Origin: a virus | Lineage: Duplodnaviria > Caudoviricetes | Virus record (IMG/VR): IMGVR_UViG_3300044961_000667 | DNA length: 64,000 bases | Direction: 5' to 3' (one strand) | Shown here: one piece after another, positions 4,721 through 54,917 of the stretch | Position numbering within the stretch: position 1 is the stretch's first letter | Layout: every line of letters starts with the position of its first letter | The notes under the pieces: model-generated | Seen by the model: the letters and a program-made list of their open reading frames with translations, nothing else | Database searches by the model: none | Told to the model about the DNA's origin: nothing | Program-made: the position numbers and the translations under genes

Positions 4721-4732
4721 GCAATCGATTGC
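4721..4732 (-). promoter_or_regulatory. Palindrome GCAATCGATTGC copy 1 (candidate late promoter)
   Basis: Perfect 12-bp palindrome just upstream of SD GAGGTG and GTG start at 4706. Confidence 0.7.
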
Positions 4733-4919
4733 GCCCTACCGCCAGCCCTGAAGCAACTCGTCGAGATCGACCCATTCGCTGGACTGCTCGGGTCGCCTCT
4801 CAGAGCCTACCTCTTGCCAGAAGGACTTGGTGAGGCGCTCGCGACGAGAGTCGCCCTTCTGAGTGTCTCCGCGAGGGGCCGCCCAGCCTCCCCAGGGGAT
4901 GCTGGAGCCTTCCGCCTGC

Positions 4920-5159
4920 TCAGTTGGGGTGCGAGGCCGCCCAGGCATCGAGAACCTCCTGCGTCCACACGACGCCGGCCACGGCGATGACACGAGCCGC
5001 CTGTCCGTCCAGCGACGAGCCAGGAATCAGCGTATCGACCGCGGTGGATCGAGCGACCTCGTTGCCGTCCTTCATCACCGCCGTGACGGTGAAGACCCGG
5101 ATCACGCCTTCGATCATGACTTCGATCTTCTCGACAAAAACCTGCTCGGTGAGCGCCAT
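4920..5159 (-). CDS. Small tail-fibre-associated protein (chaperone-like)
   Basis: MALTE...KIEV...DGNEVARS...VWTQEVLDAW pattern of small proteins encoded directly after fibre genes. Confidence 0.55.
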   Translation of the reverse strand: MALTEQVFVEKIEVMIEGVIRVFTVTAVMKDGNEVARSTAVDTLIPGSSLDGQAARVIAVAGVVWTQEVLDAWAASHPN

Positions 5160-5174
5160 TCTTCCTCCAGAAAA

Positions 5175-7088
5175 TCAGAAACTGCCGAGCGCGATCCGCT
5201 CGACGATGTAGTGCCACCGCACCGCGATCATGTCCATCGTGCCCGTGTTCACACGGACATCGAAGTAGAACTGAGGGCTGCCTCCGGTGCGGTAGTAGAA
5301 CACGTCCTCGAAGGAGATCCGGTAGTTCTCGCCCACCACGAAGGACGAGCCGTACGGGTCCAGGTTGTGCGTCTGCAGCGTGTGGTACGACACGGTGCCG
5401 CCCTGCAACGTGATGGTCAGGAACTGCGGAGTCCCCGTGATCGCGTTCACCTGGAAGTTGAGGAACCCGCGAGCACGGTACAGCCCGTAGTTCGTGGCCG
5501 GCGTGACGGACAGGTACCACGTGTTCGTGGCCATCCCGACCCGGAAGATCGTGCCGAACGCTGGAGCGTAGGTCGCGATGGTGTTCGTCGTGAAGCGAAC
5601 ACCAGAAGTGCCGATGCCGGAAAGCGACGAGGTTCCCTCGAACGCCGCCGAGTGGATGCCGACCTGGCCCAGCGCAGTGCCGAGATCGTTCAGCGCCCCC
5701 TGCACGTTGGTCGAAACGATCGGCGCGGTGGCAACGTTCGAGATGGCCGATGCGGCATGCGCGCCGGACCCGTTGTTCAGGTGGTTGTTGTGGTGCGTCA
5801 GCAGCTGACCAATTTGGTCCCTCACTGAAGATGCCGTCAACGCATCAGGAGCGCCCGCGGCTGCCTGGGCTCCGATCTTGCCAGCTCCGTCGCCAGTCGC
5901 CCCCGCTGCGTTCGCCGCAAGTTGCGAGACGATCGTGTCGAGACCCGATTCGATCGTCCCAGCAGGGACAACCGCAGTGTCGAACCACGCGCCCGAGCCG
6001 CCGTACGAGGCCCCGGTCGCGCTGTGGGTGTGCATGTTGTCGGCGTTCGCCGATGGCCCACCGAACACCACCGACTGCGCCAGGGCATCCTGGGCACGAG
6101 TCGAGAACTCGACGTCATCGACGTACAGCACGCCGGCGCAGTTGCCGAACGAGACGTCGAGCCTGGCGTGAGCACACCCGACGGGCGCGGTGACATGGGC
6201 CTTCCGCTCGACGTACGTCGTGCCACCACCGGTGAACGCGACATCGATGTCGATGGTCGACCCGACGATCACGAAGCTCTTGTCGAAGAACGTGACTCGC
6301 AGCTGAGCACCAGTGCCGCCAGAGATCGGACTCGCACCCGTGCTGCGCATCCACGCACCGACGCGGTACTCCTGGCCAGGCACCGCGGGCATGACCGTGC
6401 TGTTGGCCTGCAGCGTCACCGCGCCGGCAGCCGACAGCTTCATCGACTTCGTGCCAGTTCTCGCGTTGTCCGTCGACGCCGTCAGAACGAGCCCGCCGCC
6501 CGTGCTGACCCACCCGGCCACGGCACCGGCGTTGTCGTCCGACTCGAAACCCGAGTTGAACACCAGGTTGTTCCGCGGCTTCGCCAACGTCTGAATCGCA
6601 TCGCCTGCCGCGTTTCGATGCGCGGAGCTGATGTTGATCGCCGGGATTGGCCCGGCAGCCGGGACCAGAACCCTGGCCAGCACGATCAAGTCCGGGTTCG
6701 ACACCAGCTCGGCGTCATCGACGACTCGGAACTGCGCCGCAGTAGCCGCGCCGATCGTGTACTGCGCGTCGAGGCACACGTTCACGTAGGCCGGCAGGCC
6801 AGGCACCGTGGCGAGATTGATCGAGAAGTCGTTCTCCGTGACGAACGTGAGCGCGTACTTCCCGCCGGTGTTCTCGTTCACCACCGCCACGCTGGCGCTG
6901 AGCGTCGGGTCCCGAACGATGTCGATCCACAGCCCCAGCGCCGCGCCAGGGACCACGGTGAACCCCGCGTACACGCCCTTGGGGTTCGTGACGTACGCCT
7001 TCTTGTTGAGCGCACCCGAGGTGTAGGGCTCCTGCCAGCGCACCTTCACCTGGTCGTTGCTGATCGTCTGGCTGATGTGAACCGTCAT
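5175..7088 (-). CDS. Tail fibre with CBM4/9-like carbohydrate-binding domain
   Basis: 637 aa; NNLVFNSGFES...GWVS...ARTGTKSMKL...LYVDDVEF CBM signature; HTHS motif; distinct C-terminal domain. Confidence 0.75.
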   Translation of the reverse strand: MTVHISQTISNDQVKVRWQEPYTSGALNKKAYVTNPKGVYAGFTVVPGAALGLWIDIVRDPTLSASVAVVNENTGGKYALTFVTENDFSINLATVPGLPAYVNVCLDAQYTIGAATAAQFRVVDDAELVSNPDLIVLARVLVPAAGPIPAINISSAHRNAAGDAIQTLAKPRNNLVFNSGFESDDNAGAVAGWVSTGGGLVLTASTDNARTGTKSMKLSAAGAVTLQANSTVMPAVPGQEYRVGAWMRSTGASPISGGTGAQLRVTFFDKSFVIVGSTIDIDVAFTGGGTTYVERKAHVTAPVGCAHARLDVSFGNCAGVLYVDDVEFSTRAQDALAQSVVFGGPSANADNMHTHSATGASYGGSGAWFDTAVVPAGTIESGLDTIVSQLAANAAGATGDGAGKIGAQAAAGAPDALTASSVRDQIGQLLTHHNNHLNNGSGAHAASAISNVATAPIVSTNVQGALNDLGTALGQVGIHSAAFEGTSSLSGIGTSGVRFTTNTIATYAPAFGTIFRVGMATNTWYLSVTPATNYGLYRARGFLNFQVNAITGTPQFLTITLQGGTVSYHTLQTHNLDPYGSSFVVGENYRISFEDVFYYRTGGSPQFYFDVRVNTGTMDMIAVRWHYIVERIALGSF

Positions 7089-7110
7089 CGAACCCTCCGC
7101 CGGCGGCGGC

Positions 7111-12258: not shown

Positions 12259-12627
12259 CTACCTCGGGATCAGCACTTCCAGCGGATCCCGCTGAAGTCC
12301 GTTGATGGCGTAGACGATGGTGGTCAACACCCCCTCGTCTTCCTTGTCTTCTACGACCAGGTCAAGAAGCGTCACCCTCGGCTCGTTCTCCGAGATCGCC
12401 TTCAGCACGGTCCGGGCGATGAGCGCGTTGAGGGCCGGCCCCTTGTTCTCGAACACGAGCGTCTGCGCATCGCATCCGGCCGACGGGCGCATCACTCGCT
12501 CGAAGCGCCCGGTCAGAACGATCTGTTCGAGCGACTCGCGGACGAGCTGCTCGTCGACGGCGGTCTCTGGATAGCCACCGCCCCCCTTCCTGAACGGGAA
12601 CGAGATGCCGACGAATCGAGCCGGCAT
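12259..12627 (-). CDS. Baseplate gp25/gpW-like sheath initiator
   Basis: RESLEQIVLTGRFERVMRPSAGCD...ISENEPRV gp25-family signature. Confidence 0.9.
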   Translation of the reverse strand: MPARFVGISFPFRKGGGGYPETAVDEQLVRESLEQIVLTGRFERVMRPSAGCDAQTLVFENKGPALNALIARTVLKAISENEPRVTLLDLVVEDKEDEGVLTTIVYAINGLQRDPLEVLIPR

Positions 12628-13005
12628 TTAGCCTCCAGCCAACACGCGAATGGGCACCGCAGCCGTGCCAGGGTTGGACACGTACAACTGATTGACCTGC
12701 CCCCCGATGATCGACACGCCGGAGAGCACCATCTGTGGCGCGGTCGGGCTGTTGATCCGAACGACCAGCGACGGGGCGCCGCACTTGATGAGCGCCTTCT
12801 TCACCGTCACGTTCGAGGCTGCGAGGTCGATCAGGTAGTCGACTGCTGCCGCCGAGATGTCGACCGTGATGTCGAACTTCTCGGTGATCGTGGTGCTCTC
12901 GTCGAACACCTCCTTGGCCTCGTCGACCTCCCCCACCGATTCGTAGATGGCGAACTTCCCGAGGCCGCTGTTCTTGTCCCCGGTGAACTTGATCGACTTG
13001 GCCAT
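12628..13005 (-). CDS. Hypothetical beta-rich structural protein
   Basis: 125 aa, directly downstream of palindrome copy 2. Confidence 0.5.
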   Translation of the reverse strand: MAKSIKFTGDKNSGLGKFAIYESVGEVDEAKEVFDESTTITEKFDITVDISAAAVDYLIDLAASNVTVKKALIKCGAPSLVVRINSPTAPQMVLSGVSIIGGQVNQLYVSNPGTAAVPIRVLAGG

Positions 13006-13018: not shown

Positions 13019-13034
13019 GCGCAATCGATTGCGC
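13019..13034 (-). promoter_or_regulatory. Palindrome GCGCAATCGATTGCGC copy 2
   Basis: 16-bp perfect palindrome upstream of AAGGA and ATG 13005. Confidence 0.7.
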
Positions 13035-19149: not shown

Positions 19150-19165
19150 GCGCAATCGATTGCGC
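19150..19165 (-). promoter_or_regulatory. Palindrome GCGCAATCGATTGCGC copy 3
   Basis: 16-bp palindrome upstream of SD GAGGA and ATG 19129. Confidence 0.7.
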
Positions 19166-19209: not shown

Positions 19210-21000
19210 CTACTTGGAGGCGTCGAGAACGCTCTTGACGAAGTGAGTCGCCTCCGCGGTCTCCTGCCGGCGCTTCTTCATCCAGTCGTCGAACGACATC
19301 TCGGGGCCAAGCTGGTCGTCCTTCCCGGCCCACTTGGTCCACAGGTAGTCGAAGTCGGGATCGACGTCTTCCTTGAACGCGTACGGCGAAGGACCGCCCA
19401 GCTCGAACTCCGCCTTCTCGGGGTTCGACATCACCGTGACGAAGTCGGTCACCCAGGAGAGTCCTGGCTCGATGGTGGGCGGCTGCACCTCAGCCTCGTT
19501 GACGTACCCCACACAGATGTGCGGCACGAAGTCGAACGGGCTGCTGTACTCGATTCCCGCCGCAGCGATCGCCCGAACGATGTCGGTACGAAGGGCCGAC
19601 AGGCCCACCGCCGACGGAACCACGTACACCGGCACGCGACCATCGCTGTTCTTGGTGGCGGCGAACTTCCCAGAGCCCGTCAGCGTGAACTCCAACGGGG
19701 GATGCGTGGCCACCACCTCGGCCACCGCCTTCTTGATGCGCTCGAACGCGTCAGGCGGGTGCTTCGACTTGTTGCCGTAGTACGCCAACGTGATGTGTGG
19801 GCCAACACCGTTGTCTCGCGGTTCCCCACGCGCGTACTGCGACATGATCTTCGCGCCCGTCTCAGGCGGAAGCATGATCGCCACCCACAGGCTGCCCTCG
19901 TGGTCCTCCGTCGTGAACCTGGCGTACGGCTGAAGCGGGTGATCCTTCACCGGCTTCACGTCGGGCATCGGTCGACGCAGCATCGGCGGATACTGCTCTT
20001 CATCGCCACCACGCGGACTCCGAGCGTCACCCGGAAGCGTCGTGATGAGCGTCGAGTCGGGCATCGGGTCTTCGACCTTCACTCCGCCCATCGCCTGCTC
20101 GAACTTCCGCGCGAAGAACTTCTCGGCGTCATCGGCCGACACGAGGAACGACGGCAAGCCCACCGCCTCGGTCACGTCCGCTGGGTGCACCGGCACCGGC
20201 GCCGCAGGCGCATTCGGGCCAACCCATCCACAGTCAGGGCACGTCCAGGCATCTCTCCCGTCGTCGTACTCGATCTGAGACTCGCAGGCCGCGCTCTCCT
20301 GATGCCTGCGCATCGCAGCCGACTCCGCATCGACGCTCTCAGCCATCGGCTTCGGGTACAGGCGAAGGCGCTGGAGTGAGTGCGGACCGTCGTCGCCCAT
20401 GTCGACGTCAACCAGCTTCGACCCAGAGCTGGCGGCCAACTCGGCGTGCATTCGATCGGCGGGCGGCGTGCGACTGTGCTTGCTGACGATCTTCCCCGTC
20501 TTGCGGTCTACGGACCCCTCTCCCGACGCCAGGATCATCCCGTGCTTCAACAGCCAGTTCACGGTCTTCGCCACCAGCTTGCGGCCCATCCCCTTCTCAC
20601 CAGAAACGTTGGCGAGGTCGCTGATGAAGGCCAAACGCTTGCCTTCGACTTCGATGTCTCCGGTCGACAACCCCATCTCGGCCATCACCTGGCCGTCGGG
20701 GCTGATCAGCATGGCGAACAGATCGTAGCTGCTGTGGTTCTTGTCGACATCCAACTCCCAGCCATCACCAACCGACTCGCGCTGAGGCAGCTTCCCTTTG
20801 GCCAGCTGGCGGTTGAACTTCTTGAACTGCTTCTCCTTGGACTTCTTGTCGTCCCAGTTGCCCCACGGCTTGATGCTTCCGCCGCCAGCACCAGGGGCAA
20901 CGCCACCAAGCGGAACGGCGACGGTACCGACGTTCGCGGCAGTGGTCTGCTCGTTGCGAACGACCGCCTCCAGCTCTCGAATCAGTTCGTCGATCTTCAT
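19210..21000 (-). CDS. Multidomain protein: GNAT-like + Zn ribbon + 2H phosphoesterase (Acb1/LigT-like)
   Basis: Likely start ATG 21000 (MKIDELIRELE); ISDLANVSGEKGMGRKLV GNAT motif A-like; WTCPDCGW; PHITLAY and PHICVGY 2H motifs. Confidence 0.75.
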   Translation of the reverse strand: MKIDELIRELEAVVRNEQTTAANVGTVAVPLGGVAPGAGGGSIKPWGNWDDKKSKEKQFKKFNRQLAKGKLPQRESVGDGWELDVDKNHSSYDLFAMLISPDGQVMAEMGLSTGDIEVEGKRLAFISDLANVSGEKGMGRKLVAKTVNWLLKHGMILASGEGSVDRKTGKIVSKHSRTPPADRMHAELAASSGSKLVDVDMGDDGPHSLQRLRLYPKPMAESVDAESAAMRRHQESAACESQIEYDDGRDAWTCPDCGWVGPNAPAAPVPVHPADVTEAVGLPSFLVSADDAEKFFARKFEQAMGGVKVEDPMPDSTLITTLPGDARSPRGGDEEQYPPMLRRPMPDVKPVKDHPLQPYARFTTEDHEGSLWVAIMLPPETGAKIMSQYARGEPRDNGVGPHITLAYYGNKSKHPPDAFERIKKAVAEVVATHPPLEFTLTGSGKFAATKNSDGRVPVYVVPSAVGLSALRTDIVRAIAAAGIEYSSPFDFVPHICVGYVNEAEVQPPTIEPGLSWVTDFVTVMSNPEKAEFELGGPSPYAFKEDVDPDFDYLWTKWAGKDDQLGPEMSFDDWMKKRRQETAEATHFVKSVLDASK

Positions 21001-21001
21001 C

Positions 21002-21574
21002 TCACGCTCCGATGGCGTACTCTTCCCAGTACTCGGGCTTGATCTCCAGCTCCTGCAACGAAATCGCGCTGGACGACGCATCGAAGTCGCTTCCCACCTT
21101 GTACCTCGTCGGCACGCACCCGTGGAGCACCCAGGCTTTCCCTGGGATCCGAGTGTACTGCGTCCCGAGGGCCACGCTGCCCACCGGGTTCATCGACGTG
21201 AAGTGCACCAGCAGCAAGTTCTTCCGAACTGAGCTGCCGGCGCCGGCGGCCAACAGAGCCGGCAACGCCCCGGAGTTCTGCTTGGTGAGCGCCGCCTTGT
21301 CTCCGCTCAGCGCAGCGACGATCCATCGCCAGAAGTCGCTGTCGAAGAACTGAACGCCGCGGGTCAGCGTGATCGAGTTCACTGCCGCCCTGGTGACGAC
21401 AGTCCTCGGGAAGTGCCACGTCCCCTCTCGGATGTCGTGGGTCTCGACGGTGATCTCAGGCGCAGTGATGGCGCTGAACCCGAACACGGGCAGCAGCACT
21501 GGCGTCGGGAACGAGATGTCCGTGAGCCAGAACTGGTACGCCTGCATGTAGTCCAGCACCCGCGAGTTCGCCAT
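21002..21574 (-). CDS. Tail tube protein 2 (T4 gp19 family)
   Basis: GFSAITAPEITVETHDIREG...ITLTRGV...FWRW; DFDASSSAISLQELEI. Confidence 0.9.
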   Translation of the reverse strand: MANSRVLDYMQAYQFWLTDISFPTPVLLPVFGFSAITAPEITVETHDIREGTWHFPRTVVTRAAVNSITLTRGVQFFDSDFWRWIVAALSGDKAALTKQNSGALPALLAAGAGSSVRKNLLLVHFTSMNPVGSVALGTQYTRIPGKAWVLHGCVPTRYKVGSDFDASSSAISLQELEIKPEYWEEYAIGA

Positions 21575-21585
21575 TCTCTGACCTC

Positions 21586-21619
21586 AAAACGAAGGGCCGG
21601 CCGATTGCTCGACCGGCCC
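21586..21619 (-). terminator. Intrinsic terminator after tube gene 1
   Basis: GGGCCGG/CCGGCCC stem followed on the minus strand by TTCGTTTT, directly before the SD of tube gene 2. Confidence 0.6.
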
Positions 21620-21660
21620 CCGGCTCCCGCGTACGGGTTGGCCGTCTTGGAGTAGACCTA

Positions 21661-29405: not shown

Positions 29406-29408
29406 GGT

Positions 29409-29420
29409 GCAATCGATTGC
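29409..29420 (-). promoter_or_regulatory. Palindrome GCAATCGATTGC copy 4
   Basis: Minus strand reads TAAGGCGCAATCGATTGCACCATG. Confidence 0.7.
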
Positions 29421-29423
29421 GCC

Positions 29424-31265: not shown

Positions 31266-31306
31266 GGTCGTTCAGCTCCCAGACTACGCTTCCTGAAGCT
31301 GAGCGA

Positions 31307-31678: not shown

Positions 31679-31718
31679 GACTGCTCCTTTGCGGTTACCG
31701 GCCAGACCATCTACTCCA

Positions 31719-31765
31719 GAAACACAACGGGGAGGAGGAGAGGCGAAAGCCTTCCCTCCTCCCCG
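31719..31765 (-). terminator. Intrinsic terminator after the major capsid gene
   Basis: CGGGGAGG...CCTCCCCG long stem with inner GGCGAAAGCC; TTGTGTTT follows on the minus strand. Confidence 0.7.
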
Positions 31766-31788
31766 CTCTGAAAGACTTCGGCGATGGC

Positions 31789-33240
31789 TTACAGGTTGAC
31801 GACGTTCACCTGGCCGTAGAACTCGCTGCGCAGCACCTTCTTGGCGTAGCGGGTGCGCATGCCCTTCCGGAACGAGAAGTCGCCCGGATCGAGGAACGTC
31901 GGGGTGACCTGCAGGGGCACGAACGGCGCCCAGGCGTAGCCGGCGTCGAGGAACGACGGCATCTTCAGGCCCACGAGGATCTTGCCCTTGTAGGTCGGGT
32001 ACCGCGTGTCGAAGAACGGGTCCTTGTAGACCATCCACTTCTTCTGGAGCACGCCGGCCTTCACGATGCCGTAGTTGAACGCGTACTCCTTCGGGTCCTC
32101 GCTCACGAACGTGGGCAGAGTCTCCAGGAGGGCCACCACCTCGGGCGAGGTGATCAGGAAGTTGCCCGGCGCACGCAGGGTCTTCTTGTGGATCAGGTTC
32201 GACACGGTCGCCAGCGGCGTCACGATGTCGCGCAGGTGGTCCTGCTCGCTGATGCCGGCCGGCACGTTGCGGTCGAACGACGCCACCGAGCCCGTCGAGA
32301 CGCTGACGAGGTCGTTGATGATCTCGCGGTCGAGTTCGAGCGCGATCTCCTGGGCGATGCCGCCGACCAGCTCGGTCTCCGCGTCGAGACCGTGGAACGC
32401 GCGGAGGTCATCGGCGGCCTCGCTGCTCCACAGCGCCTTCAGCTTGCGGGTCGTGGCGCGGATCTCCTGGAGCTGGATGTCCAGGTTGATCTGGGGCACC
32501 GAGCTGTTGTTCTCGGTGTTGTAGGTGTAGTCGATCGTCACCCGCGTGCCGAGGTCAGGGGCGTTGGCCGCCTGGAACGTCACGCTGAAGGCGCCCGACG
32601 TGAAGTTGATCGAGCCGGCCGCGATGCCGCCACCGGCCGCGAACGTGCCGTCACCGTCGACGTCAGGGTTGACCGACTTGGCCACGGAGCCCGTGGTCCA
32701 GTTCACGACGAGCGTGCCCGACTTGATCGGGAGCCACGAAGCCGTGCCGGTGAAGGGCCCGAGCGACGCGCCGTCGCCGGCCGCGCCGATCGCCTCGGCC
32801 GTCACGTTCTCGGACGAGTAGTCGAGGTCGAACTTCTGGACGAGGTTGTCGCCCGCGGTGATGCGGCCCTTCGTCGAGCCGTACTTGTACTCGAAGAAGA
32901 AGACCGCGCCGACCGGTGCCGTCATCGGCTGCACCGACACGATGTCGTTGGCGATCAGGTTCGGGAAGACCCGGCGGAGGATCGGGAAGATGAACTTGGT
33001 GAACGGGCCGACGTTGGCCGCACGCGTGTCCTCGGTGAGAGAACGGAGATGCTCCATCTCGTTCTCCAGCAGGATCGCCGTGACCGCGGCACGGTGACGA
33101 CCGGCCTGGGTCTTGGTGTCGATGCCTTCCAGCATCGGACCCCACTTCTTGCTCAGCATGCGGACGTAGCTCTCGTCCGCGATCGTGCGCTTGGCTTCAC
33201 CGTTCTCCATCAGCTGCCGCGCCGTGTTCGGGTTTCCCAT
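31789..33240 (-). CDS. Major capsid protein, T4 gp23-like
   Basis: VQPMTAPVGAVFFFEYKY; ATTRKLKALWS; ELDREII; GYAWAPFVPLQ; FSFRKGMRTRY. Confidence 0.97.
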   Translation of the reverse strand: MGNPNTARQLMENGEAKRTIADESYVRMLSKKWGPMLEGIDTKTQAGRHRAAVTAILLENEMEHLRSLTEDTRAANVGPFTKFIFPILRRVFPNLIANDIVSVQPMTAPVGAVFFFEYKYGSTKGRITAGDNLVQKFDLDYSSENVTAEAIGAAGDGASLGPFTGTASWLPIKSGTLVVNWTTGSVAKSVNPDVDGDGTFAAGGGIAAGSINFTSGAFSVTFQAANAPDLGTRVTIDYTYNTENNSSVPQINLDIQLQEIRATTRKLKALWSSEAADDLRAFHGLDAETELVGGIAQEIALELDREIINDLVSVSTGSVASFDRNVPAGISEQDHLRDIVTPLATVSNLIHKKTLRAPGNFLITSPEVVALLETLPTFVSEDPKEYAFNYGIVKAGVLQKKWMVYKDPFFDTRYPTYKGKILVGLKMPSFLDAGYAWAPFVPLQVTPTFLDPGDFSFRKGMRTRYAKKVLRSEFYGQVNVVNL

Positions 33241-33334
33241 GGTGTTCCTCGTGCTCCGTGCTTCAGTCTCGGGGCTTCATGCCCTCTGACAGGTTGTTGG
33301 ACTGCGTCAGACTACAGGTTCCTGACTCCCAGCG

Positions 33335-39697: not shown

Positions 39698-42600
39698 TCA
39701 GCCTTTGACAGGAAGCAGCGGAGCCCAGTTGTCCTTCGCGCCTGGCTCTTCCTTCGGCCGCATGGTCTCGCCCTTCTCGTTCCTCGGGAGAACCCAGTCG
39801 ATGTCCTCGACAGTGGCGTCTCGGTACTCGCTGATGCCAGGGGAGGCAACCAGCGGCTGGGGCGCCAGCCTGGTGGTCAACGACATCGTCACACCGGCGA
39901 GTCCGTCGGCAACGTCTTTCGACCCATCCTGGGGGTGATCGACCTTCTTGCGCTTCGGGTTCCACTCCAGTTGCCGCAACTCCTTCTCCAAGTGCGGGAA
40001 CGGCAAACAGTCGAACCGCTCCTCGTTGATCGCGTTCTTCAGCAGATCGTACGCGTCCGACGAGGAGTCGACCGACAACACCTCCGCCTTGTACCCCTTC
40101 GAGTTCAGGTTCTGCCTCATGTCGGCGCTGTTGTGCGACATGAAACCGTTGGCCAGATAGGACGGATCGTCCTCTACCTCCAAGTCGAAAACATCAGCTT
40201 CACCATCAGCCTCAACGCTCACCACCCTCGCGAAGATTCTTCGTCCGACAACACCAACATGCTTCTCAAGCTCAACCTGCTTGCGGGAGTACGAGAACCC
40301 AATCCTCTCCAGGAACTTCCGCCTGGCGCCACGTACTCCCACCACATACTGGACACCATCCTTGACGTAATCGCCTGGGTGTCCTCGCTCCATGATCACC
40401 AGTTTCGACTCGATGCCAAAGTCACATCGCAGCATCAACCTCACCTGGTCGGCCAGATCCCGATGCTTCGTCGACAACGAAACGTAGCCGTCCAATCGCC
40501 CAACATTTCCGTCGGTCGCGAACAGGCCCCTCAGGAATGACGCCTTCACGGCACGACTACCCCTGAGCACGGCCTCCGGAACAAGAGGTTTTCGCAGGCC
40601 ATTCTGCTCCATCCATCTCACCAGCCACCGAGCACTCACGGACACAGTCCCGAACCCAGCCCCGTCTACACCGCGATACTCTGGCGCCACACCAAACAGC
40701 CTCATGAATACAGCCTGGGCATCGACAGCCTCGTCGTCGGTGACGGTTAGCCTGACGGAGTCTTCGCCGATATTTCCGTCGCCCCAAACGAGACCAAGCC
40801 ATTCGGCCAGGGCCGGTCCCATCCGAACCGGAAGCGACCACTCCGAGAGCACACCTGCGCGAGCAGGACTCCAGCCGAGGTCTCGCTTGTCACCGACCAG
40901 CTCAACATCGGGCGCGTCCATCTCGACAGGCGACGACGCCATCCGCACCACGTCGCCTGCGCGAATCTCGTCCAGCCTACGCCACTCCCAGATTGGTTCG
41001 CGAGTCCAACCAAATTCGGATTCGCTCTCAGGCCCCCATCCAACTTGCACCTCAATCCGGTGTCGCCCGGTGCCGACCAAGCTGTCTCCGTCGGCCGTCG
41101 ACAATTTCAGTACCGGCTGTCGACCAAAGGCCCAAACATTCTTCACTGGTTTTGGCCCTGCGCGCGACTGAACTATGTCGCCAATCAGGACTTCCTCGAT
41201 CGGCAACAAGCCGCGGCTTGTGCTCACTCTCGTTCCAGCAGCCAAGCACTGGTACGTGTCCATCGTCACCAGCCCGATGTGGAAACCGTGCTCGGTCAGC
41301 TCGTAGATGAGGCGCCGCACTTCGGCCATCGGGATCTCCCCCCGGTCCGGCGGAACGATGCGCAGCGCCAAGTCGATCACGATGAACGGAACCATCTCCT
41401 TCGACTTCTTGCCGCTCGACCAGTTCGTCCTCACCACCTCGACCATCTTGGCGACGTGCCCCATCGCGAAGCCGTACGAGTCGTCAGAAAGCGCAGGGTC
41501 GAGATGGATGTGTCGCTGCGCGTCGGGATTGAACCGCGGCTTGTAGCTCAACAACGTCTTCCCGTTGACCGACCGACGCTGACGCTCCACGCACAACGCC
41601 GACCAATCGAGGGCCAGCGGCGTGGTGGGATCCCACTCCAAGCCTCCCGGCCGCGGCATGGGGCGCTTCGACGACAGCGCCTTGATGATCTTCTCCTTGT
41701 TCCTGATGTACGGCCGAATCGAGTCGGTCGCGATGCCGGCGATCTCGCGAAGCGAGCCGTCCAGGTCCTCCTCGAAGTCTGAACGAAAGTCGATCGGCAC
41801 CTCGATGATGCGTTGCTTGCCTTGAGCGACGGTGTCGGGCACCGGCTCCGAATCAGCAAGCACTCGGCTCGACACGTCGTCGGTCCCGATGACGACACGG
41901 AACTTCTGATCGCTGTACTTCTTGACGTCCCACAGCGCGTACTCGCGAACGAAGATGCGCGGGTTGTCGGCCGACTCTCGGATCTTGCGCTCGGTGAAGT
42001 CGGTCGTGCCCTTCTTCGACGAGATCGTCATCAACATGCCTGGCATCTGGCCACCACGCAGGAAGCGGGACTTCATGCGGCGCAAGATGCTGGAGTACAG
42101 CTGCGAGCCCTTGTCGATGTGCCCCCACCGCGCGTGCGACGCCTTCTGCTCGCGGGTGAACGACATGAAGTTCGTCTCGTCGATGGCTGCACCAAAGACG
42201 TTTCGACCGATGACGCTGTTGTCGGCGGACGACGCCGGCACCGCCCAGATGTTCTTCGGAAAGCGAAGCGCCTCCATCGAGCGGTGACACTTGAACTTCT
42301 CGTTGAAGTACGGGCTCACGATCAGCTTCTGCGCGAGGCCCTCCAACAGCGTCGCCATCGCCGTCTTTTCGTTGACGCTGATGCCGGCGAACACGATCTC
42401 AGAACCAGAAGCCAACCCGTACGAACGCTGCGGGTTCCTCAGGCAGCTCATCTCGTAGATCTGCCGAGCGATGACGATCTCGGCGAAGGTCGACTTGCCC
42501 CAGCCGATGGCGCCGCCGAGGACGACCTCGTGGTACGAGCCAGTGAACAGCTCGACGACGTCCTCCTTCAGCTTGGGCCACAGGCCCTTCGCGACTTCCC

Positions 42601-42841
42601 CGAAGTAGTAGTCGTCGTCGAGCCAGGTGCGGACGTCAACAACCTCGCGCTCGTACTCCGCTTCAGAGGCCAGCTTCAGGAGCGTCTTCACCCCATCCTG
42701 GGTTTCCTGCGCCTCGCGAAGAATGGTCTCGACAAAGACCTTCTCCTCCGGAGTCAGATCCTTGTAGTCGCTTTCGAGGAGCTTGATGTCCTCCTGCGGC
42801 GTACGAACGCTGATCTGTCTGCCACCGATGTCGACGATCAT
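39698..42841 (-). CDS. terL: Terminase large subunit, intein-containing
   Basis: Walker A GGAIGWGKS, Walker B AAIDETNF, nuclease HIHLDPALSDD and KDVADGLAG; about 674 aa after splicing. Confidence 0.95.
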   Translation of the reverse strand: MIVDIGGRQISVRTPQEDIKLLESDYKDLTPEEKVFVETILREAQETQDGVKTLLKLASEAEYEREVVDVRTWLDDDYYFGEVAKGLWPKLKEDVVELFTGSYHEVVLGGAIGWGKSTFAEIVIARQIYEMSCLRNPQRSYGLASGSEIVFAGISVNEKTAMATLLEGLAQKLIVSPYFNEKFKCHRSMEALRFPKNIWAVPASSADNSVIGRNVFGAAIDETNFMSFTREQKASHARWGHIDKGSQLYSSILRRMKSRFLRGGQMPGMLMTISSKKGTTDFTERKIRESADNPRIFVREYALWDVKKYSDQKFRVVIGTDDVSSRVLADSEPVPDTVAQGKQRIIEVPIDFRSDFEEDLDGSLREIAGIATDSIRPYIRNKEKIIKALSSKRPMPRPGGLEWDPTTPLALDWSALCVERQRRSVNGKTLLSYKPRFNPDAQRHIHLDPALSDDSYGFAMGHVAKMVEVVRTNWSSGKKSKEMVPFIVIDLALRIVPPDRGEIPMAEVRRLIYELTEHGFHIGLVTMDTYQCLAAGTRVSTSRGLLPIEEVLIGDIVQSRAGPKPVKNVWAFGRQPVLKLSTADGDSLVGTGRHRIEVQVGWGPESESEFGWTREPIWEWRRLDEIRAGDVVRMASSPVEMDAPDVELVGDKRDLGWSPARAGVLSEWSLPVRMGPALAEWLGLVWGDGNIGEDSVRLTVTDDEAVDAQAVFMRLFGVAPEYRGVDGAGFGTVSVSARWLVRWMEQNGLRKPLVPEAVLRGSRAVKASFLRGLFATDGNVGRLDGYVSLSTKHRDLADQVRLMLRCDFGIESKLVIMERGHPGDYVKDGVQYVVGVRGARRKFLERIGFSYSRKQVELEKHVGVVGRRIFARVVSVEADGEADVFDLEVEDDPSYLANGFMSHNSADMRQNLNSKGYKAEVLSVDSSSDAYDLLKNAINEERFDCLPFPHLEKELRQLEWNPKRKKVDHPQDGSKDVADGLAGVTMSLTTRLAPQPLVASPGISEYRDATVEDIDWVLPRNEKGETMRPKEEPGAKDNWAPLLPVKG
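40130..41248 (-). mobile_element. 373-aa intein with LAGLIDADG homing endonuclease
   Basis: N-splice DTYQ/CLAAGTRV, C-splice FMSHN/SAD; WLGLVWGDG and FLRGLFATDG endonuclease motifs. Confidence 0.95.
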
Positions 42842-43576: not shown

Positions 43577-43594
43577 CGCGCAATCGATTGCGCG
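43577..43594 (-). promoter_or_regulatory. Palindrome CGCGCAATCGATTGCGCG copy 5
   Basis: 18-bp perfect palindrome upstream of terS start 43564. Confidence 0.7.
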
Positions 43595-43610: not shown

Positions 43611-44021
43611 CTACTTCTCGGACAGCCCGAGTTCCTTCAGCGCCTGTTCGAGCGTACCACCGTCCAGCAGCGCAGCCATTCTGGTGGCATCGCCGACCGT
43701 CGGTTCTGCTCCCGGCTTCCTGGGCTTCCAGAACAGCCTGTCGCCGATCTGCACCAGCTCCTGGTGGTGCGTCTTCACGAAGCGCAGGAGGCCGCAGTCG
43801 CACAGCTTGACCTGCTTGTCTGCGTCACCGCCCTTGCCCAGGACCGTGAACGCACCCTTGCCGAAGCACCGTCGACAGCCCTTCTTCGCGGAAAGGGCTA
43901 CCTCCGCCGGCTTGACTGGCTCCAGATCGTTCAGCCCGACTCCCAGGGAGTCTCGGACCTGCTGGTCGAGCTTCTTGTAGGGCTCGGGCACTTCAGGCGC
44001 AGCCTGCTCGGGGGTGTTCAC
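43611..44021 (-). CDS. Zn-ribbon hypothetical protein
   Basis: GTG 44021 overlaps ParB stop (GTGA); CRRCFGKG and CDC motifs. Confidence 0.55.
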   Translation of the reverse strand: MNTPEQAAPEVPEPYKKLDQQVRDSLGVGLNDLEPVKPAEVALSAKKGCRRCFGKGAFTVLGKGGDADKQVKLCDCGLLRFVKTHHQELVQIGDRLFWKPRKPGAEPTVGDATRMAALLDGGTLEQALKELGLSEK

Positions 44022-44848
44022 GCCGCCGCCTCCGGGGCCGGCTTCTCTTCCGCGGCAGCCGCCACCGGCTCCTTCGGCAGATCCTCGACGTCCTTCTCCC
44101 AGTCCTTGAGCACGCGGTGCAGGAACTGGTTGATGTCGACCTTCGCCTTCATCGAGCGATCGGCGATCGCCTTCGCCTGCTTGAACGTCTCGGCGTCGCA
44201 CGCGATGTAGAGGTGCTCCTTCGAGCCGTACGTGAACACCATGAAGTTCTGCGTGATGGTGTCGCCGTACTCGTTGAAGAGGTGGTTCAGCACCGCCGAC
44301 AGATCGTCGATGGTCTTCACCTCCTTCTTCATCTCGTCGAACTTCTCCAGCATGTCGCCCGACAGCCCCGTGCTCTCCAGGGCCTCGCGGACTCCGCCGA
44401 CGAGCTTCTTGAAAGCCGCCTCGTCGGTGAAGCCCATCAGGTTCTGCATGGCGTCTTCGCCGTACCGCTGAGCCAGCTCGTTGTAGAGGCCGACCATCCT
44501 CTCGGGATCGAGCTTGCCCTTGATGACGTTGAGGCGGACGGTGACGAACTTCTGAAGGTCCACGTCCTTCCACTTCGTCTCCGACAGGACGGCCACCGGC
44601 ACCTCGGCGATGCCGAGCGACTTCGCTGCTCGCCACCGGTGCTCACCACCGATGATCCTGAGCTTCCCGTTCTCCATCGGGATCGCCTGGATCTGGTCGA
44701 TGAACCCGACGTTCGAGATCTCCTCCGCGAGCCGATTGAACTCGCGGTCGCTCATCTGGTTCGGGTTCCAGGGGTTCGGTTCCAGCTCGTCGACCGGCAC
44801 GAGCTTCGACACGTACACCTGGGGGATGTGGCTGTTCGTCTCGCTCAT
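44018..44848 (-). CDS. ParB/sulfiredoxin-like N-terminal domain protein
   Basis: VPVDELEPNPWNPN...GFIDQIQ...IIGGEHRWRAA...NVIKGKLD. Confidence 0.92.
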   Translation of the reverse strand: MSETNSHIPQVYVSKLVPVDELEPNPWNPNQMSDREFNRLAEEISNVGFIDQIQAIPMENGKLRIIGGEHRWRAAKSLGIAEVPVAVLSETKWKDVDLQKFVTVRLNVIKGKLDPERMVGLYNELAQRYGEDAMQNLMGFTDEAAFKKLVGGVREALESTGLSGDMLEKFDEMKKEVKTIDDLSAVLNHLFNEYGDTITQNFMVFTYGSKEHLYIACDAETFKQAKAIADRSMKAKVDINQFLHRVLKDWEKDVEDLPKEPVAAAAEEKPAPEAAA

Positions 44849-49269: not shown

Positions 49270-50712
49270 CTACCCGCGCTTCATGTGGAGCTTGGGCCCG
49301 TCGCACATGTCGACGTACCCGAACGACGTCAGCATCCACTTCATCGCCAACGGCGAGATGTACTTGAAGTCCGCCTGAGCCCTGGATCGAGCGCTCATCG
49401 CCTTGTAGACGACGGAGAGGTCGCTCACCTCGGGCCACTGTTCGGCCTTCACCGCCTCTTCGAGAAGCCCGTACGCAGGACTGATGCGCTGCACAGTCTC
49501 GATGTTCCGCTTGGCGACCGGCTCCATGAACTGCTTCACGGCCGCGTCCCAGGCACGAGCGACATCGATGGTGCCCCACGGCTCGGTGAACTCGATGAGC
49601 TTCTTGCCCCACTGCGCCTTCACCTCATCGAAGTTCTTCGCGACGTACGCCAGCTTCACTCGCAGGTCAGCCATCCCCTTCGCGATGAACGGGTAGTCCT
49701 TCGGCAGGCGGTTCCGAATCCACACAGTGTCGGTCACCACGGGGATCTGCCCCGAGCGAATCGCCTCCATGTAGGCCAGGCCGGTGCCTTCGTAGTCGCA
49801 GGCGCACACCAGCACGTCACCTTCGTGCAGCGACTCGATGTAGCGCCTGTGGCCGACCCCCGTTTCCAGCTGGACCTGCTGCTCACCGAAGGGATTCTCC
49901 TTCGGAGTGTGCTGCGTCTTGAAGACTCCCTGGATCGGGAATCCCTTGCTGGTCAGCTCGTACAACTGCTTGGCCACCTGCTCCAGGTGTCGCTTCCCCT
50001 CCAGTGAGCCACCGTGGAAGACGGCAACCTTCCCCGTCTCCCGCCGGCGAGCCGCACGCTTCTGCTCGAACTCGTCGCGCTGCTTGTCGATGGGCGGGTA
50101 GTCGGCGCACGCGCGAATCACGTACGTCCACTTCATGATCCGGTCGACCATCGACGGCGACATGCAGCGGCGGACGACACGAAACAGTTCGTCACGGTCG
50201 TACTCGTTCATCACGAACACCGGACCGACAGCCGCCGCCGAGGAGATGAGCGCATACCCCGCCTCCTCGCGCATCGTCGGCAGGCGATCGTCCAGGCTGG
50301 ACTCGGTGTAGTACGTCACCACCGGAACCTCGATCTGCTGGTACCACTTCCCCGGCGGCACGGTGAACGCCAGCTTCAGCGCAGCCGAGTGGAAGAACTT
50401 CTGGTTCAGCACGTAGTCGAACAGCACCTTCCCCTTCTTCGGGAGAAGGGGCGTCATCGTCTCCATCGAGATCGGCGGGAAGTCGAACTGGCTGATGAAC
50501 GGGTCGCCCATCGGCAGCGTGTTGATCCACGGCTTCTGGAAGTACGAGTCGTCCCAGTTCAGCTCGTTCTTGTTGGGCGGGACGACCCACTCGCAGTAGT
50601 GCCGCGAGCCGATCGCATCCAGGCCCTCCAGCACCGCCTGCATGTTGTTCATCATGCTGTTGCCGGAGAGATCCTTCGACGTGTACAGCTCGATGAGACT
50701 CAGGAAGCGCAT
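49270..50712 (-). CDS. GT-B fold glycosyltransferase 2 (GT4-like)
   Basis: Start ATG 50712 (TGATG overlap); FHGGSLEGKR; canonical EX7E EGTGLAYMEAIRSGQIPV. Confidence 0.8.
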   Translation of the reverse strand: MRFLSLIELYTSKDLSGNSMMNNMQAVLEGLDAIGSRHYCEWVVPPNKNELNWDDSYFQKPWINTLPMGDPFISQFDFPPISMETMTPLLPKKGKVLFDYVLNQKFFHSAALKLAFTVPPGKWYQQIEVPVVTYYTESSLDDRLPTMREEAGYALISSAAAVGPVFVMNEYDRDELFRVVRRCMSPSMVDRIMKWTYVIRACADYPPIDKQRDEFEQKRAARRRETGKVAVFHGGSLEGKRHLEQVAKQLYELTSKGFPIQGVFKTQHTPKENPFGEQQVQLETGVGHRRYIESLHEGDVLVCACDYEGTGLAYMEAIRSGQIPVVTDTVWIRNRLPKDYPFIAKGMADLRVKLAYVAKNFDEVKAQWGKKLIEFTEPWGTIDVARAWDAAVKQFMEPVAKRNIETVQRISPAYGLLEEAVKAEQWPEVSDLSVVYKAMSARSRAQADFKYISPLAMKWMLTSFGYVDMCDGPKLHMKRG

Positions 50713-51749
50713 CACTTGCTCCAGTCCTTCGCGTTCTTCAGCGACTCCTCGATGTACTTTCTCACGTCGCCCTTCACCTCGTCCCACAGCTTCGCGCCCT
50801 CGTCATCCGTGTTCCAACCGAACTGCTTGGCGCAGATGTCCAGGGCTTCGTTCCTCCACCGAATCGGACGCTCGTTGGGGAGCAGCAGAGCGGACTCGAA
50901 GAAGAACATCAGCATCCCCATCTTGAAGGGGTCGATGTTCCGCTCCGTGCCCACCTTCGAGAGCGCGTTCTTGCCGCGGTAGGTGTGCAGGTCGAGCCCG
51001 TACCAGTCGACCGTGTCGGCCATCTCGATGTCGCCAGGCTCGACAACGATGCCAGGCCACGGAATGGGCTCCTGCTTCGGCTGGTCGATGAGCGCCATGA
51101 CGATGGCGCAGATCAACATCTCCTCGTCGCCCAGCATGCACTTCCGCACGAGCCGCCAGAGGCAGCCCTCGACGATCTGCTGCGTCCAGGGGTTGGTCGC
51201 CTCGGCTCGCGTGGTGATGACCCTCACCAATCCGTGACGAGCCAGGAACTCCTTCGCTCGGTGCGCCGCCATGCAGATGCGAGACGCCTCGATGTAGTCC
51301 TTCGCGTCGAGCGCCTTCTCCAAGCCCGTCACGGAGTACCACTTCGTCGTCTTCAGGTTCTCGTCCGCGATGGTGTAGAGCCAGCCCGCCTCCTTCGACT
51401 TGGGCAACGTCGCCAGGTTCGCGATGAGCGAGTACAGCCCCTTCATCTGCTCGGGACGCATCGGGCCTGCCGTCTTCATCATCGGCCACGTCTTGGCCTC
51501 GGCGTAGACCCGCGGCATGAACTCCCACCCCAGGTCCTCGACGCAGATGATCGGGATGCGCTTGCACAGCGCAATCCGCTCCTCCGTGCCGTGGGACACC
51601 ATGCCGGCGGCCGTGGCCAACGCCTTCTGGACCTCAGTCCGCCGCAGGTGCTTCTGGAAGGCGGACTTCAACTCCGCCGGGTGAACCTTCGACTTCCGTG
51701 GCCCCTCGAAAAGGGCCACCTGGACTGCTGCTTTCTGAGCCACTGACAT
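50712..51749 (-). CDS. Helical protein resembling the RarA/MgsA C-terminal lid domain, without ATPase
   Basis: KSAFQKHLRR...KRIPIICVEDLG resembles RarA SALHKSIRG...RRLVRIASEDIG; no Walker motifs. Confidence 0.55.
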   Translation of the reverse strand: MSVAQKAAVQVALFEGPRKSKVHPAELKSAFQKHLRRTEVQKALATAAGMVSHGTEERIALCKRIPIICVEDLGWEFMPRVYAEAKTWPMMKTAGPMRPEQMKGLYSLIANLATLPKSKEAGWLYTIADENLKTTKWYSVTGLEKALDAKDYIEASRICMAAHRAKEFLARHGLVRVITTRAEATNPWTQQIVEGCLWRLVRKCMLGDEEMLICAIVMALIDQPKQEPIPWPGIVVEPGDIEMADTVDWYGLDLHTYRGKNALSKVGTERNIDPFKMGMLMFFFESALLLPNERPIRWRNEALDICAKQFGWNTDDEGAKLWDEVKGDVRKYIEESLKNAKDWSK

Positions 51750-52091: not shown

Positions 52092-52094
52092 CGA

Positions 52095-52994: not shown

Positions 52995-53307
52995 TGTGTG
53001 CTCCTTCTCGTTCATCGGTGAAAACCACTTCCTCACAGCGGATCTCCACCAGATCGTTCTGACTCTGGTGACCAGTCCGATTCATCAGCTGCCCGGCGAC
53101 GATCGCGTAGCCGCCCTTCCTCGCTCGATCCCTGCAGATCGAGACAAGCCCTCCATACACGTTCACGCGAACCCAGGTGGCCGCGCGCCCCTTTCCCTCC
53201 ACCGCCAGGAGGAACGAGCACGCCTGCTCTCCTCCGTTGGTCGCGCCGAAGTTGATGCTGCCGCCGATGTTGCCGGCCACGACGACCGAGTTGATCCCTC
53301 TAGCCAC
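52960..53307 (-). CDS. ssb: Bacterial-type SSB OB-fold without acidic tail
   Basis: MARGINSVVVAGNIG...TWVRVNVYG...IVAGQL resembles E. coli SSB N-terminus. Confidence 0.75.
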   Translation of the reverse strand: MARGINSVVVAGNIGGSINFGATNGGEQACSFLLAVEGKGRAATWVRVNVYGGLVSICRDRARKGGYAIVAGQLMNRTGHQSQNDLVEIRCEEVVFTDEREGAHNGKQEVERADG

Positions 53308-53947
53308 GCTGGTCTCCTTGCGTGCGTCGGACCCACAAGGCCCGCGCCACAACGTACGCATCCATCTGGTCGTCACCGCCTTCTTCCTTCGGCGGGAACG
53401 ACAATCCCCGCGCGAGAAGCTGCTCGCGCACTTGTTCCTTGACCGGCTTCACCTCAGCCCTCTTCGTCTTCTCCCACTTGCCGTCGACCTTCTTCCGAAC
53501 AGACTTCTGCTGGATGACGATCCCCACGTCCTTGCGCGCAGCCTGAGGCGGGATGGGCGTCGCGACGACACCGAGAGCCAAGAACAGCTGACACTTCGTG
53601 AACCCCTGCAGCTCGGCCAGCGGCTCTCGGCCGAACTGCTTGCCGAACGCATAGCCTTCGATGGCCACCTCGGGCTTCCCGAGGTCAGCGTGCTTCTTGA
53701 TCAACCCCAGCACCGAGTTCGCGATGCCGATGACCCGCTCCACGCGCTGCCGCTCGTTCTTCCCCGACAGCTGGTAGCCGAACACCTCGTACTGCTCGGC
53801 CACGCCGTCCGGCCTCAGCACCGCCACCGCGGTGTGGGTGAGCGACATGTCGAGCCCGACGATCTTGGCGGAGAGCGGAGCCGGCTTCGGCTTGAGCGCT
53901 GCCAGGAGATCCTCCTGCTCAGGAGATGGACGAAGATCGTCTCTCAC
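53300..53947 (-). CDS. ruvC: RuvC-like Holliday junction resolvase
   Basis: IVGLDMSLTHTAVAV; VAIEGYAF; DQMDAYVVA acidic triad. Confidence 0.88.
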   Translation of the reverse strand: MRDDLRPSPEQEDLLAALKPKPAPLSAKIVGLDMSLTHTAVAVLRPDGVAEQYEVFGYQLSGKNERQRVERVIGIANSVLGLIKKHADLGKPEVAIEGYAFGKQFGREPLAELQGFTKCQLFLALGVVATPIPPQAARKDVGIVIQQKSVRKKVDGKWEKTKRAEVKPVKEQVREQLLARGLSFPPKEEGGDDQMDAYVVARALWVRRTQGDQRG

Positions 53948-54888
53948 GGGGAGTCACCCAGCTTCGTCTTGCAGCCGAAGCACTTGGTCACGAGCTGACA
54001 CTCCTTGGCCCGGTCCGTCTTGGCGTTGTCGCAGACGGTGAGGCGAGGAGGCAGCTCGACGTCGCCGCCGATCCTGATGCCGCGGCGAATGGTCGTGATC
54101 ATCGACAGGACGTCATCTACCAGCTTCTGGTCGTACTCGACCTCGTAGACGCGCATGGCACGGAACCCGTAGCCACCCTTGTTCTGGTAGACGATGAGGC
54201 CGTCTTTCTGCCGCAGGCCAGTCATCCACATGTACACGTTCGTCTGGATGACGTGCGCGACGTTGGGCGACATGTCGACCTTGTTCTTGAACCCGTCCGG
54301 GTTGATCGACTTGAACTCGACGATGCGCTTGCCGTCTCCGAGGTCCAGGATGCCGTCAGGGTGACCGCGCAGCTTGTACTGCTGGTTCTCGACCTCGATC
54401 TCCCGGTAGAGGAACCACGAGCCACCACAGTCGGTCACCGCGTAGACGCCGGGTTGCTCCTCGATCACCTTCTTGCCGTCGCACAGCTTCGGCCTGCCGA
54501 TCGGCACCGCGTCGGTGCCGTGCATCTTGCCGCAGTCCATGCACTTCCAGAGGCCATAGAGCACTCCATGGGGCCCCAGGAACTCGTTCTGCATCACGAA
54601 GTGCCACCCGGAGCCGATGCCGTAGGTCAGCTGCTCATCCGGCGTGATGATGTCGGACCGACGCACTCCGCAGACACCAGCCAGAACCTCTTCTCTGGCG
54701 CAGAGGTACCCAAGCGACGAGACTCGAAACCACGCATCCGCGGAAGGGGGCTCTGAGTCGCCGGCGTATCGAGCCGTTCGCCTCAAGAACTCCACGAGGG
54801 ACTTGTCTCGAACACCCTCAGCCGGAACTTCGGCGGGCTTCCCGGCCCGCCCATACAGCATCTCGTGAATGAGATCTGCGAACGCCAT
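53944..54888 (-). CDS. Cas4-like PD-(D/E)xK exonuclease
   Basis: GHPDGILD...IVEFKS...QTNVYM; one N-terminal and three C-terminal Cys, plus a CMDC/C..C ribbon. Confidence 0.85.
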   Translation of the reverse strand: MAFADLIHEMLYGRAGKPAEVPAEGVRDKSLVEFLRRTARYAGDSEPPSADAWFRVSSLGYLCAREEVLAGVCGVRRSDIITPDEQLTYGIGSGWHFVMQNEFLGPHGVLYGLWKCMDCGKMHGTDAVPIGRPKLCDGKKVIEEQPGVYAVTDCGGSWFLYREIEVENQQYKLRGHPDGILDLGDGKRIVEFKSINPDGFKNKVDMSPNVAHVIQTNVYMWMTGLRQKDGLIVYQNKGGYGFRAMRVYEVEYDQKLVDDVLSMITTIRRGIRIGGDVELPPRLTVCDNAKTDRAKECQLVTKCFGCKTKLGDSP

Positions 54889-54899
54889 TCACATCTCCT

Positions 54900-54917
54900 C
54901 GCGCAATCGATTGCGCG
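54900..54917 (-). promoter_or_regulatory. Palindrome CGCGCAATCGATTGCGCG copy 6
   Basis: 18-bp palindrome immediately followed by AGGAG and ATG 54888. Confidence 0.7.

Follow-up and report, generated by a model that had tools for sequence, protein, structure and literature searches.

Cluster A mycobacteriophages, which are temperate, have a known repressor (L5 gp71, Bxb1 gp69) and, as its sites, asymmetric stoperators of 13 bp; these are thought to halt elongating polymerase when the phage protein is bound. The gp55 late promoter of phage T4, TATAAATA, occupies positions -13 to -6, has no -35 box and is located before late genes. Genomes of T4-type phages further contain promoter-early stem-loop (PeSL) cassettes of about 100 bp (Arbiol et al. 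2010, PMC2839356; Comeau et al. 2014, PMC4122927), proposed as conserved homology at cassette borders. Cluster O mycobacteriophages carry a 17-bp repeat, TGTTCGG-N3-CCGAACA, in >30 copies within about 70 kb, with function and binding factor unassigned (Cresawn et al. 2015, PMC4351075). The giant virion RNA polymerase of phage N4 recognizes three template-strand hairpin promoters, which extend from -17 to +1 and have a 3-nt purine loop centred at -11 (PMC4496689). The present analysis concerns a palindrome, GCAATCGATTGC, dispersed over a 64,000-nt stretch of phage DNA (IMG/VR record IMGVR_UViG_3300044961_000667), referred to below as the window, which comes from a high-GC, uncultured T4-like branch. 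To our knowledge, nothing is known about gene regulation in this branch. As judged by sequence comparison, the palindrome is a repeated, direction-sensitive signal that a whole clade of uncultured T4-like phages has in common and that is located at the borders of gene blocks. With a probability of roughly 0.38, we read it as a clade-wide recognition site at transcription-unit borders, to which a phage protein would bind in duplex DNA.

All genes of the window are on the minus strand, and according to the curated gene list 96.2% of it is coding and 3.8% non-coding. The 12-mer GCAATCGATTGC is found in six exact copies, at 4721, 13021, 19152, 29409, 43580 and 54903, and in no copy in 100 dinucleotide-preserving shuffles (expectation 0). 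Six copies had been reported by an earlier reading of the letters alone (the original prediction), whose coordinates 13019, 19150, 43577 and 54900 are correct as starts of the extended palindromes of 16-18 bp. Its claim that every copy is intergenic and stands just before a start holds as well: 6/6 copies are located in intergenic gaps of 18-87 nt (P = 3e-9 given the non-coding fraction), with 14, 15, 22, 3, 15 and 14 nt on the coding strand between the end of the core and the start codon, always a minus-strand one. Convincing copies with one or two mismatches are absent from the window, and neither AATCGATT nor CAATCGATTG occurs elsewhere in it. Walking along Logan contigs extended the same phage by ~40 kb beyond the window, to a total of about 104 kb, and added four further exact copies. 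Intergenic placement, as the original prediction had it, extends to two of these and fails for the other two. The first intergenic copy is arranged as stop, 7 nt, core, 12 nt and ATG, and the second precedes tRNA-Pro(tgg), within an array of 24 tRNAs, by 4 nt from its 5' end; the intragenic ones lie in an HTH_36 initiator-like gene and in a HerA-like gene, both in the frame A-Q-S-I-A. Altogether, eight of the ten verified copies are intergenic (p=2e-10).

Relatives used for comparison were the IMG/VR records G001-G005 and G009 and the loci L023, L028 and L029 (portal 48-78% identical and GC 50-63% in those with CGCAA/TTGCG arms); the contexts of their copies were taken from our own gene calls, which match the deposited calls for G001. 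Genomes whose palindrome has the arms CGCAA/TTGCG are called CGCAA-type, those with the palindrome of the sister subclade GTCCA-type. One position, that of the copy upstream of terS in the window, is kept in all relatives of the CGCAA subclade. Between the preceding stop and the terS-like gene, every one of them has the same arms around a different centre: TCGA in the window, TTGA in L023 (the 78% relative), GCGC in G001, ACGT in L028, GCAT in L029, ACAC in G002, GTGT in G003 and ACAC in G004, where one arm is also changed in a way that in RNA would produce G.U. Each genome thus has its own fixed 4-bp centre, distinct from that of other genomes, while the arms of 5-7 bp, (G)CGCAA / TTGCG(C), with half-site centres 10 bp apart, are conserved. 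When whole IMG/VR records were searched for CGCAA-N4-TTGCG, 13, 12, 6 and 2 copies were found in G001-G004, with 0 for the reversed-pattern control. The entire 14-16-mer is retained within a genome, in 10/10 copies here and in 11/13 in G001, where 9/13 copies are intergenic (p = 3e-5). Arms that stay identical over 48-78% portal identity, without compensatory changes or covariation among the relatives, suggest that sequence and not structure is under conservation. Intragenic copies point the same way, as they always occupy the tolerable frame A-Q-x-(L/I)-A, which argues for selection on DNA; G002 has 7-8 of its 12 copies inside genes, mostly in the frame x-Q-x-L-A.

The sister subclade, represented by G005 and G009, has no CGCAA copies and carries ATGCGTCCAT(A/G)TGGACG(C/T)AT instead, with the core GTCCA-N2-TGGAC. 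All 12 copies of this type are intergenic, mostly 1-9 nt past stop codons, and they are followed either by a TTGACN-17-TANNNT promoter with leaderless start or directly by a Shine-Dalgarno sequence (SD). Replacement of one palindrome by another at the same kind of junctions fits co-evolution of a protein with its site. The promoters of these two genomes (for example at G009:10972, 101469 and 163423) read TTGAC(C/A)-17-TAnnnT and are 6-7 nt from ATG or GTG, which implies leaderless mRNAs; the host phylum of G009 and G005 is thus probably one in which such mRNAs are common.

Among relatives, about half of the copies begin 0-19 nt past a stop codon, five are located between convergent genes, and some are directly followed by SD and start as in the window; the element is also found 44-216 nt from starts. 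Upstream of terS, the relatives share the order of palindrome, GCTAC box and conventional TTGAG-17-TAAGAT promoter. Several copies adjoin tRNA genes or a second palindrome, GGAAAACTC-N2-3-GAGTTTTCC. This second palindrome, absent from the window, has 10-12 copies per genome in G001 and G002 (for example L071-L073, L062, L064), often <=60 nt from a CGCAA palindrome, which it encloses in one case. Outside the clade, a scan of IMG/VR and 185,579 genomes with the 16-mer gave scattered single matches only, at chance level, and a repeat common to the whole host was rejected, the matches in sequenced bacteria and in other IMG/VR phages being those expected by chance. A metagenome scan with terS added one distant locus, without the motif, and no literature match to the exact palindrome sequences was found.

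These comparisons would be accounted for by a sequence-specific protein, encoded by the phage and probably dimeric, that binds the duplex palindrome. The bound site would mark the borders of transcription units and would gate or block RNA polymerase entering the next gene block, while protein and site would co-evolve between subclades. Two observations detailed below agree with this reading: the three sites at which neighbouring genes could be assessed all adjoin non-conserved genes on one side and a conserved core gene on the other, and the sense-RNA hairpins of 6/10 copies are weak and lack a U tract. By analogy, it might act like the cluster A stoperators and like the stem-loop part of PeSL cassettes. 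The original prediction had offered an operator for a dimeric regulator as an alternative; this fits the comparative data better than its preferred promoter of gp55 type, even though the binder was not found. What the palindrome shares with stoperators is its multiplicity, its placement in short intergenic gaps and an orientation that follows transcription, as in a dispersed operator; it differs in being palindromic, in belonging to an apparently lytic T4-like phage and in lacking a detected repressor.

The closest published parallels, by analogy of architecture, are the PeSL cassettes (PMC2839356, PMC4122927) and the Cluster O repeat (PMC4351075). Like PeSLs, the palindromes are repeated, conserved intergenic elements of T4-like genomes, in which a stem-loop ending one gene is combined with signals for the next; a sigma70-type promoter follows the palindrome in G009, G005 and G001-G003, and the sites are found at junctions of variable and core genes. 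Unlike PeSLs, the palindromes of the window have no accompanying promoter, the 3-22 nt between motif and start containing no -35/-10 pair; the element measures 14-18 bp, its stems are short and often weak, its arms are kept across very distant phages, and copies are also found in late structural operons and within genes. The Cluster O repeat likewise combines invariant inverted arms with a variable centre and has dispersed copies, some intergenic or near starts, others intragenic. It shows no orientation bias with transcription, whereas here about one copy per 10 kb is present, with clear orientation bias and tight spacing to the start.

Directionality and the link to the downstream start are best seen from the individual copies, all on the minus strand. 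Copy 1 (4719..4734; sense GCGCAATCGATTGCAC) begins with its core 3 nt after a stop and is followed by 3 nt, the SD AGAGG and the GTG at 4706 of a CIS_tube-like gene (4029-4706). Copy 2 (13019..13034), a perfect 16-bp palindrome, lies 60 nt past a stop and 15 nt before the ATG at 13005; the genes downstream are 12628-13005 and then a gp25-like gene at 12259-12627. Copy 3 (19150..19165) is a perfect 16-bp palindrome as well, 22 nt before the ATG at 19129 of a T4_baseplate gene (PF12322). Copy 4 (29407..29422; sense GCGCAATCGATTGCAC) fills an 18-nt gap made of stop, 3 nt, core and 3 nt before the ATG at 29405 of the head-completion gene. Copy 5 (43577..43594) and copy 6 (54900..54917) are perfect 18-bp palindromes, located 15 nt before the ATG at 43564 of the terS-like gene and 14 nt before the ATG at 54888 of the gene for a Cas4-like exonuclease, respectively. 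The names CIS_tube, Cas4-like exonuclease and terS-like had been given correctly by the original prediction; the gene it took for a tail chaperone is the T4_baseplate one.

On the coding strand, each of the ten verified copies has the sequence C-GCAATCGATTGC-(G or A)-C. The base in the downstream arm is changed from G to A in 6/10 copies, and its mirror position in the upstream arm is never T (Fisher p = 0.011). When relatives are included, 9/9 variant bases fall within the downstream arm as defined by the local gene strand (two-sided p = 0.004), namely in the six copies here and at G001:173235, G002:153096 and G002:117649, the last of these in a minus-strand block. The start context is equally regular. 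At +4, that is 4 nt past the core, an A is present in 7/8 intergenic copies (p = 8e-5) and in neither of the two intragenic ones. Within the window, it is found at 4717, 13017, 29405, 43576 and 54899, in agreement with the claim of the original prediction that an A stands at a fixed distance in five of six copies; copy 3 (19152) is the sole one with C. In five copies the SD begins with this A, in another the A stands 1 nt before tRNA-Pro, and before the head-completion gene, correctly described earlier as lacking an SD, it is the A of the start codon itself, for the G001 homologue aligns from residue 1 and confirms ATG 29405 as the true start. The order of palindrome, 3 nt and SD is also found in L023, G003 and G005. 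The intervals among the ten copies range from 4.9 to 21 kb (CV 0.43; P about 0.02 for the lack of any short interval).

Several of these results weigh against a protein-bound duplex site. A symmetric dimer predicts neither the downstream-arm bias nor the fixed 3-nt spacer to an A at ATG, SD or tRNA. Searches found no protein that binds the palindrome, and the presence or absence of the candidates considered (an RHH protein at 3837-4025, an 80-aa protein at 58614-58856, the HTH_36 protein and a ParB-like protein at 44018-44848) never matches the palindrome type. Genomes of both types encode the ParB-like protein, in which only ParB_N was detected and no HTH domain. Lysogeny genes, or another need for a repressor of the stoperator type, are not evident. 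The transcript data, four RNA runs that contain the phage as assembled Logan contigs, are too coarse to reveal an effect and speak neither for nor against any of the models: in these contig-level data the RNA depth shows no consistent step at 29409 and 43580. One contig of run X1 spans the 43580 copy, and another contig ends 32 nt past the 29409 copy.

The regular spacing to +4 is what an unusual hairpin-forming promoter would predict, following the logic of the N4 virion RNA polymerase and read by a candidate phage polymerase or sigma factor, an explanation that we consider unlikely but the strongest of the alternatives. With the start at the +4 A, the 16-mer would reach from -17 to -2 and have its dyad centre at -9.5. 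The N4 geometry, from -17 to +1, is similar (PMC4496689), and both systems would have a conserved region of about -17 to -2/+1, inverted repeats, a template-strand hairpin and a short ruler to the start base. The loop, on the other hand, would here have 4 nt centred at -9.5, and no such polymerase was detected. Further points favour transcription starts: 8/8 intergenic copies stand close to a start codon (3-22 nt) or to the tRNA 5' end (4 nt), orientation tracks the local gene strand in G002, the copies are fairly evenly spaced, and the tail region yielded no E. coli-type promoters. With the downstream-arm A variant, a hairpin with a G.T wobble is preserved on the template strand but not on the sense strand. 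Four imperfect copies in G005 and G009, however, have their wobble (G.U) on the sense strand, so no single structural rule covers both subclades.

Contexts in relatives argue against promoters of this kind, since copies there are also remote from starts, past stop codons, between convergent genes, inside genes or in front of ordinary promoters, and the centre is GC-rich in G001. Single-subunit RNA polymerase (PF00940) had no match in five relatives, a weak negative with a silent control. A 2017-aa protein of the virion module at L121:574-6627, about 7-13 kb past the low end of the window, has no Pfam, PHROG or PDB sequence match, to a polymerase or otherwise, and no homologue in four relatives. 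The RNA data show no depth step at 29409 or 43580, and one contig passes the latter. The full version of this scenario, N4-like logic in an unrelated lineage, in which a T4-like clade would transcribe its gene blocks and tRNA array from template-strand hairpin promoters, start 4 nt past the palindrome, make leaderless or near-leaderless mRNAs and employ a co-evolved, as yet unrecognised phage polymerase or sigma factor, is somewhat less probable still.

The original prediction had been more specific, proposing that AATCGATT is a -10 box of gp55 type and the palindrome a late promoter. What remains of this interpretation is that the copies are non-random, intergenic, directional and tied to the downstream start here; the specific promoter model is not supported. 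The supposed box is the least conserved part of the element, its sequence differing in each relative and being GC-rich in G001 while the arms stay fixed. A role as late promoter does not agree with copies after stops, between convergent genes, inside genes and upstream of ordinary promoters in relatives, nor does late specificity with the position of 54903 and the two intragenic copies in the replication region. Likeness to the gp55 promoter is thus limited to the position proposed earlier (-13 to -6), the missing -35 box and placement before late genes. Differences are the palindromic motif, its centre, unconserved in relatives and not AT-rich in G001, the copies in the early region and the gp55 homologue undetected in relatives, where phrog_234 had no match in G001 (92% complete), G002, G004, G005 and G009, a weak negative as the control genomes were silent too.

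Small ECF-like sigma genes (PF04542) are present in G001 (71890-72378) and G002 (50340-50867 and 55586-56122), and a CGCAA palindrome lies 12-60 nt past the stop of the sigma gene in both, in G002 that of 50340-50867. As relatives encode such sigmas and the search controls were silent, a phage sigma factor as such might still be involved. When the sigma factors of relatives were compared by tblastn with the part of this phage's own genome that was read, nothing was found, and the ECF-type -35/-10 spacing was rejected as it does not fit the motif. Another element of the window, the GTAGTCTG box (TAGTCT, -10-like and preceded by G), is located at 33309-33314 and 31280-31290, upstream of the capsid gene and a gp13-like gene, and boxes of the similar form GTAGnnT are present in several further late gaps; from its sequence, it is a candidate for a real late or host-type -10 element. 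Metatranscriptome contigs of the capsid gene have an end at 33282-33285.

Slightly less probable than a hairpin promoter is a site acting at the level of RNA, as attenuator or terminator, as stabiliser of 3' ends, or as target of an endoribonuclease that separates cistrons and tRNAs. The frequent position just past stop codons in relatives speaks for it, as do the five copies between convergent genes, where one palindrome could serve both transcripts. Stems of the GTCCA type in G009 and G005 reach 8-10 bp (-13 to -15 kcal/mol) and precede promoters, as terminators do; the four imperfect copies of these genomes have their G.U on the sense strand; and stem-loops of T4-type PeSLs are proven terminators (PMC2839356). 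Cleavage near +4 would, moreover, account for the link to SD, ATG and tRNA.

The stems of this phage, however, are poor ones. Sense-RNA hairpins range from -2.4 to -10.4 kcal/mol and are weak in 6/10 copies (-2.4 to -6.1 kcal/mol), and the common A variant is a C.A mismatch in sense RNA, which reduces at least four copies to a stem of 4 bp (-2.4 to -3 kcal/mol). No U tract or T run follows the palindrome at any copy, so the GC-rich stem with U tract of intrinsic terminators is not seen; the arms lack covariation, and Rfam gave no match. Used as terminator, the element would silence a gene 14 nt downstream and leave no room for a promoter, and a copy inside a gene would cut or stop the mRNA of that same gene. 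An apparent terminator just before the tRNA-adjacent copy was rejected, because shuffled sequences fold about as well (z = -1.0) and the terminator scan did not pick it up, and it is therefore not used here to suggest re-initiation. Canonical terminators, with long GC stem and T run, are present at 31679-31788, 21575-21660 and 60430-60512, after the capsid gene and two others. The host machinery thus uses ordinary terminators, which the palindrome does not resemble. The gap after the major capsid gene folds to -51 kcal/mol. Three of the RNA runs are biofilm metatranscriptomes, in which no other piece is as abundant as the capsid gene (contigs 31776-33285, depth 16-19); in two of them, X3 and X4, the depth falls past the canonical terminator.

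Quite improbable as a sole explanation, and compatible with a regulatory role, is a signal for recombination or mobility: homology at cassette borders, a pac-like signal by terS or a target of a homing or resolving nuclease. At the three sites where this could be assessed (29409, 43580 and 54903), the palindrome is in 3/3 cases at the junction of non-conserved genes with a conserved core gene; at copy 6, three non-conserved genes meet the core gene. The one universally conserved copy adjoins terS, and a RuvC-like gene (53300-53947) is common only to CGCAA-type genomes. An exact GCGCAATCGATTGCAC is further found in the 78% relative (L023:11744-11759), inside the HNH intein of the portal gene and in the frame A-Q-S-I-A. 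Against such a signal, homology of 12-16 bp is short, only one side of each variable block in the window carries a copy, no insertion or deletion polymorphism bounded by two copies was seen, and both the fixed spacer to the SD and the strong avoidance of coding DNA stay unexplained. Two further ideas are dismissed: translational repression of RegA type, for which no homologue was found (phrog_242; five relatives, control silent) and against which the tRNA-adjacent copy argues, and a restriction or methylation site (ClaI/TaqI core), which leaves the placement unexplained.

A palindrome that stands at gene-block borders and is rewritten between subclades offers a handle on the transcription programme of the clade. 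The T4 late sigma appears to be missing from these phages (as searched in relatives, with silent controls), yet they keep the short palindrome, and the 16-mer could be used as bait for the factor that reads it. If the hairpin promoter were true, it would be a second, independent origin of an N4-like mechanism, in an unrelated phage lineage.

Judged by its proteins, the phage is a member of a large, uncultured and distant T4-like clade, because its set of proteins is of T4 type, portal identity to the closest GenBank phages is only about 35%, and portal relatives are abundant in metagenomes (>2,600 at E <= 1e-30 among 8,000 candidates scored). A megablast of 20 kb against GenBank phages gave no match. 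T4-type proteins of the window include the portal (PF07230), the prohead protease and a Gp23-type major capsid protein; T4_baseplate and CIS_tube proteins and an intein-bearing large terminase are encoded too. Upstream, sugar-modification, ParB-like, recombination and replication genes are found. The large terminase (39698-42841, 1047 aa) carries a LAGLIDADG intein, and other samples of the same phage have an intein-free allele of 674 aa; a contig of RNA run X1 that omits 40126-41248 (1121 nt) matches this allele. In the tail region, the adjacent open reading frames 21002-21574 and 19210-21081, which come directly after a terminator-like hairpin, have 80 nt in common in different frames; this may reflect a programmed frameshift or a mis-set start. 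The array of 24 tRNAs (L121:11678-16584) lies 17-22 kb past the low end of the window and is broken by PD-(D/E)XK endonuclease genes and by a lone response-regulator gene on the opposite strand.

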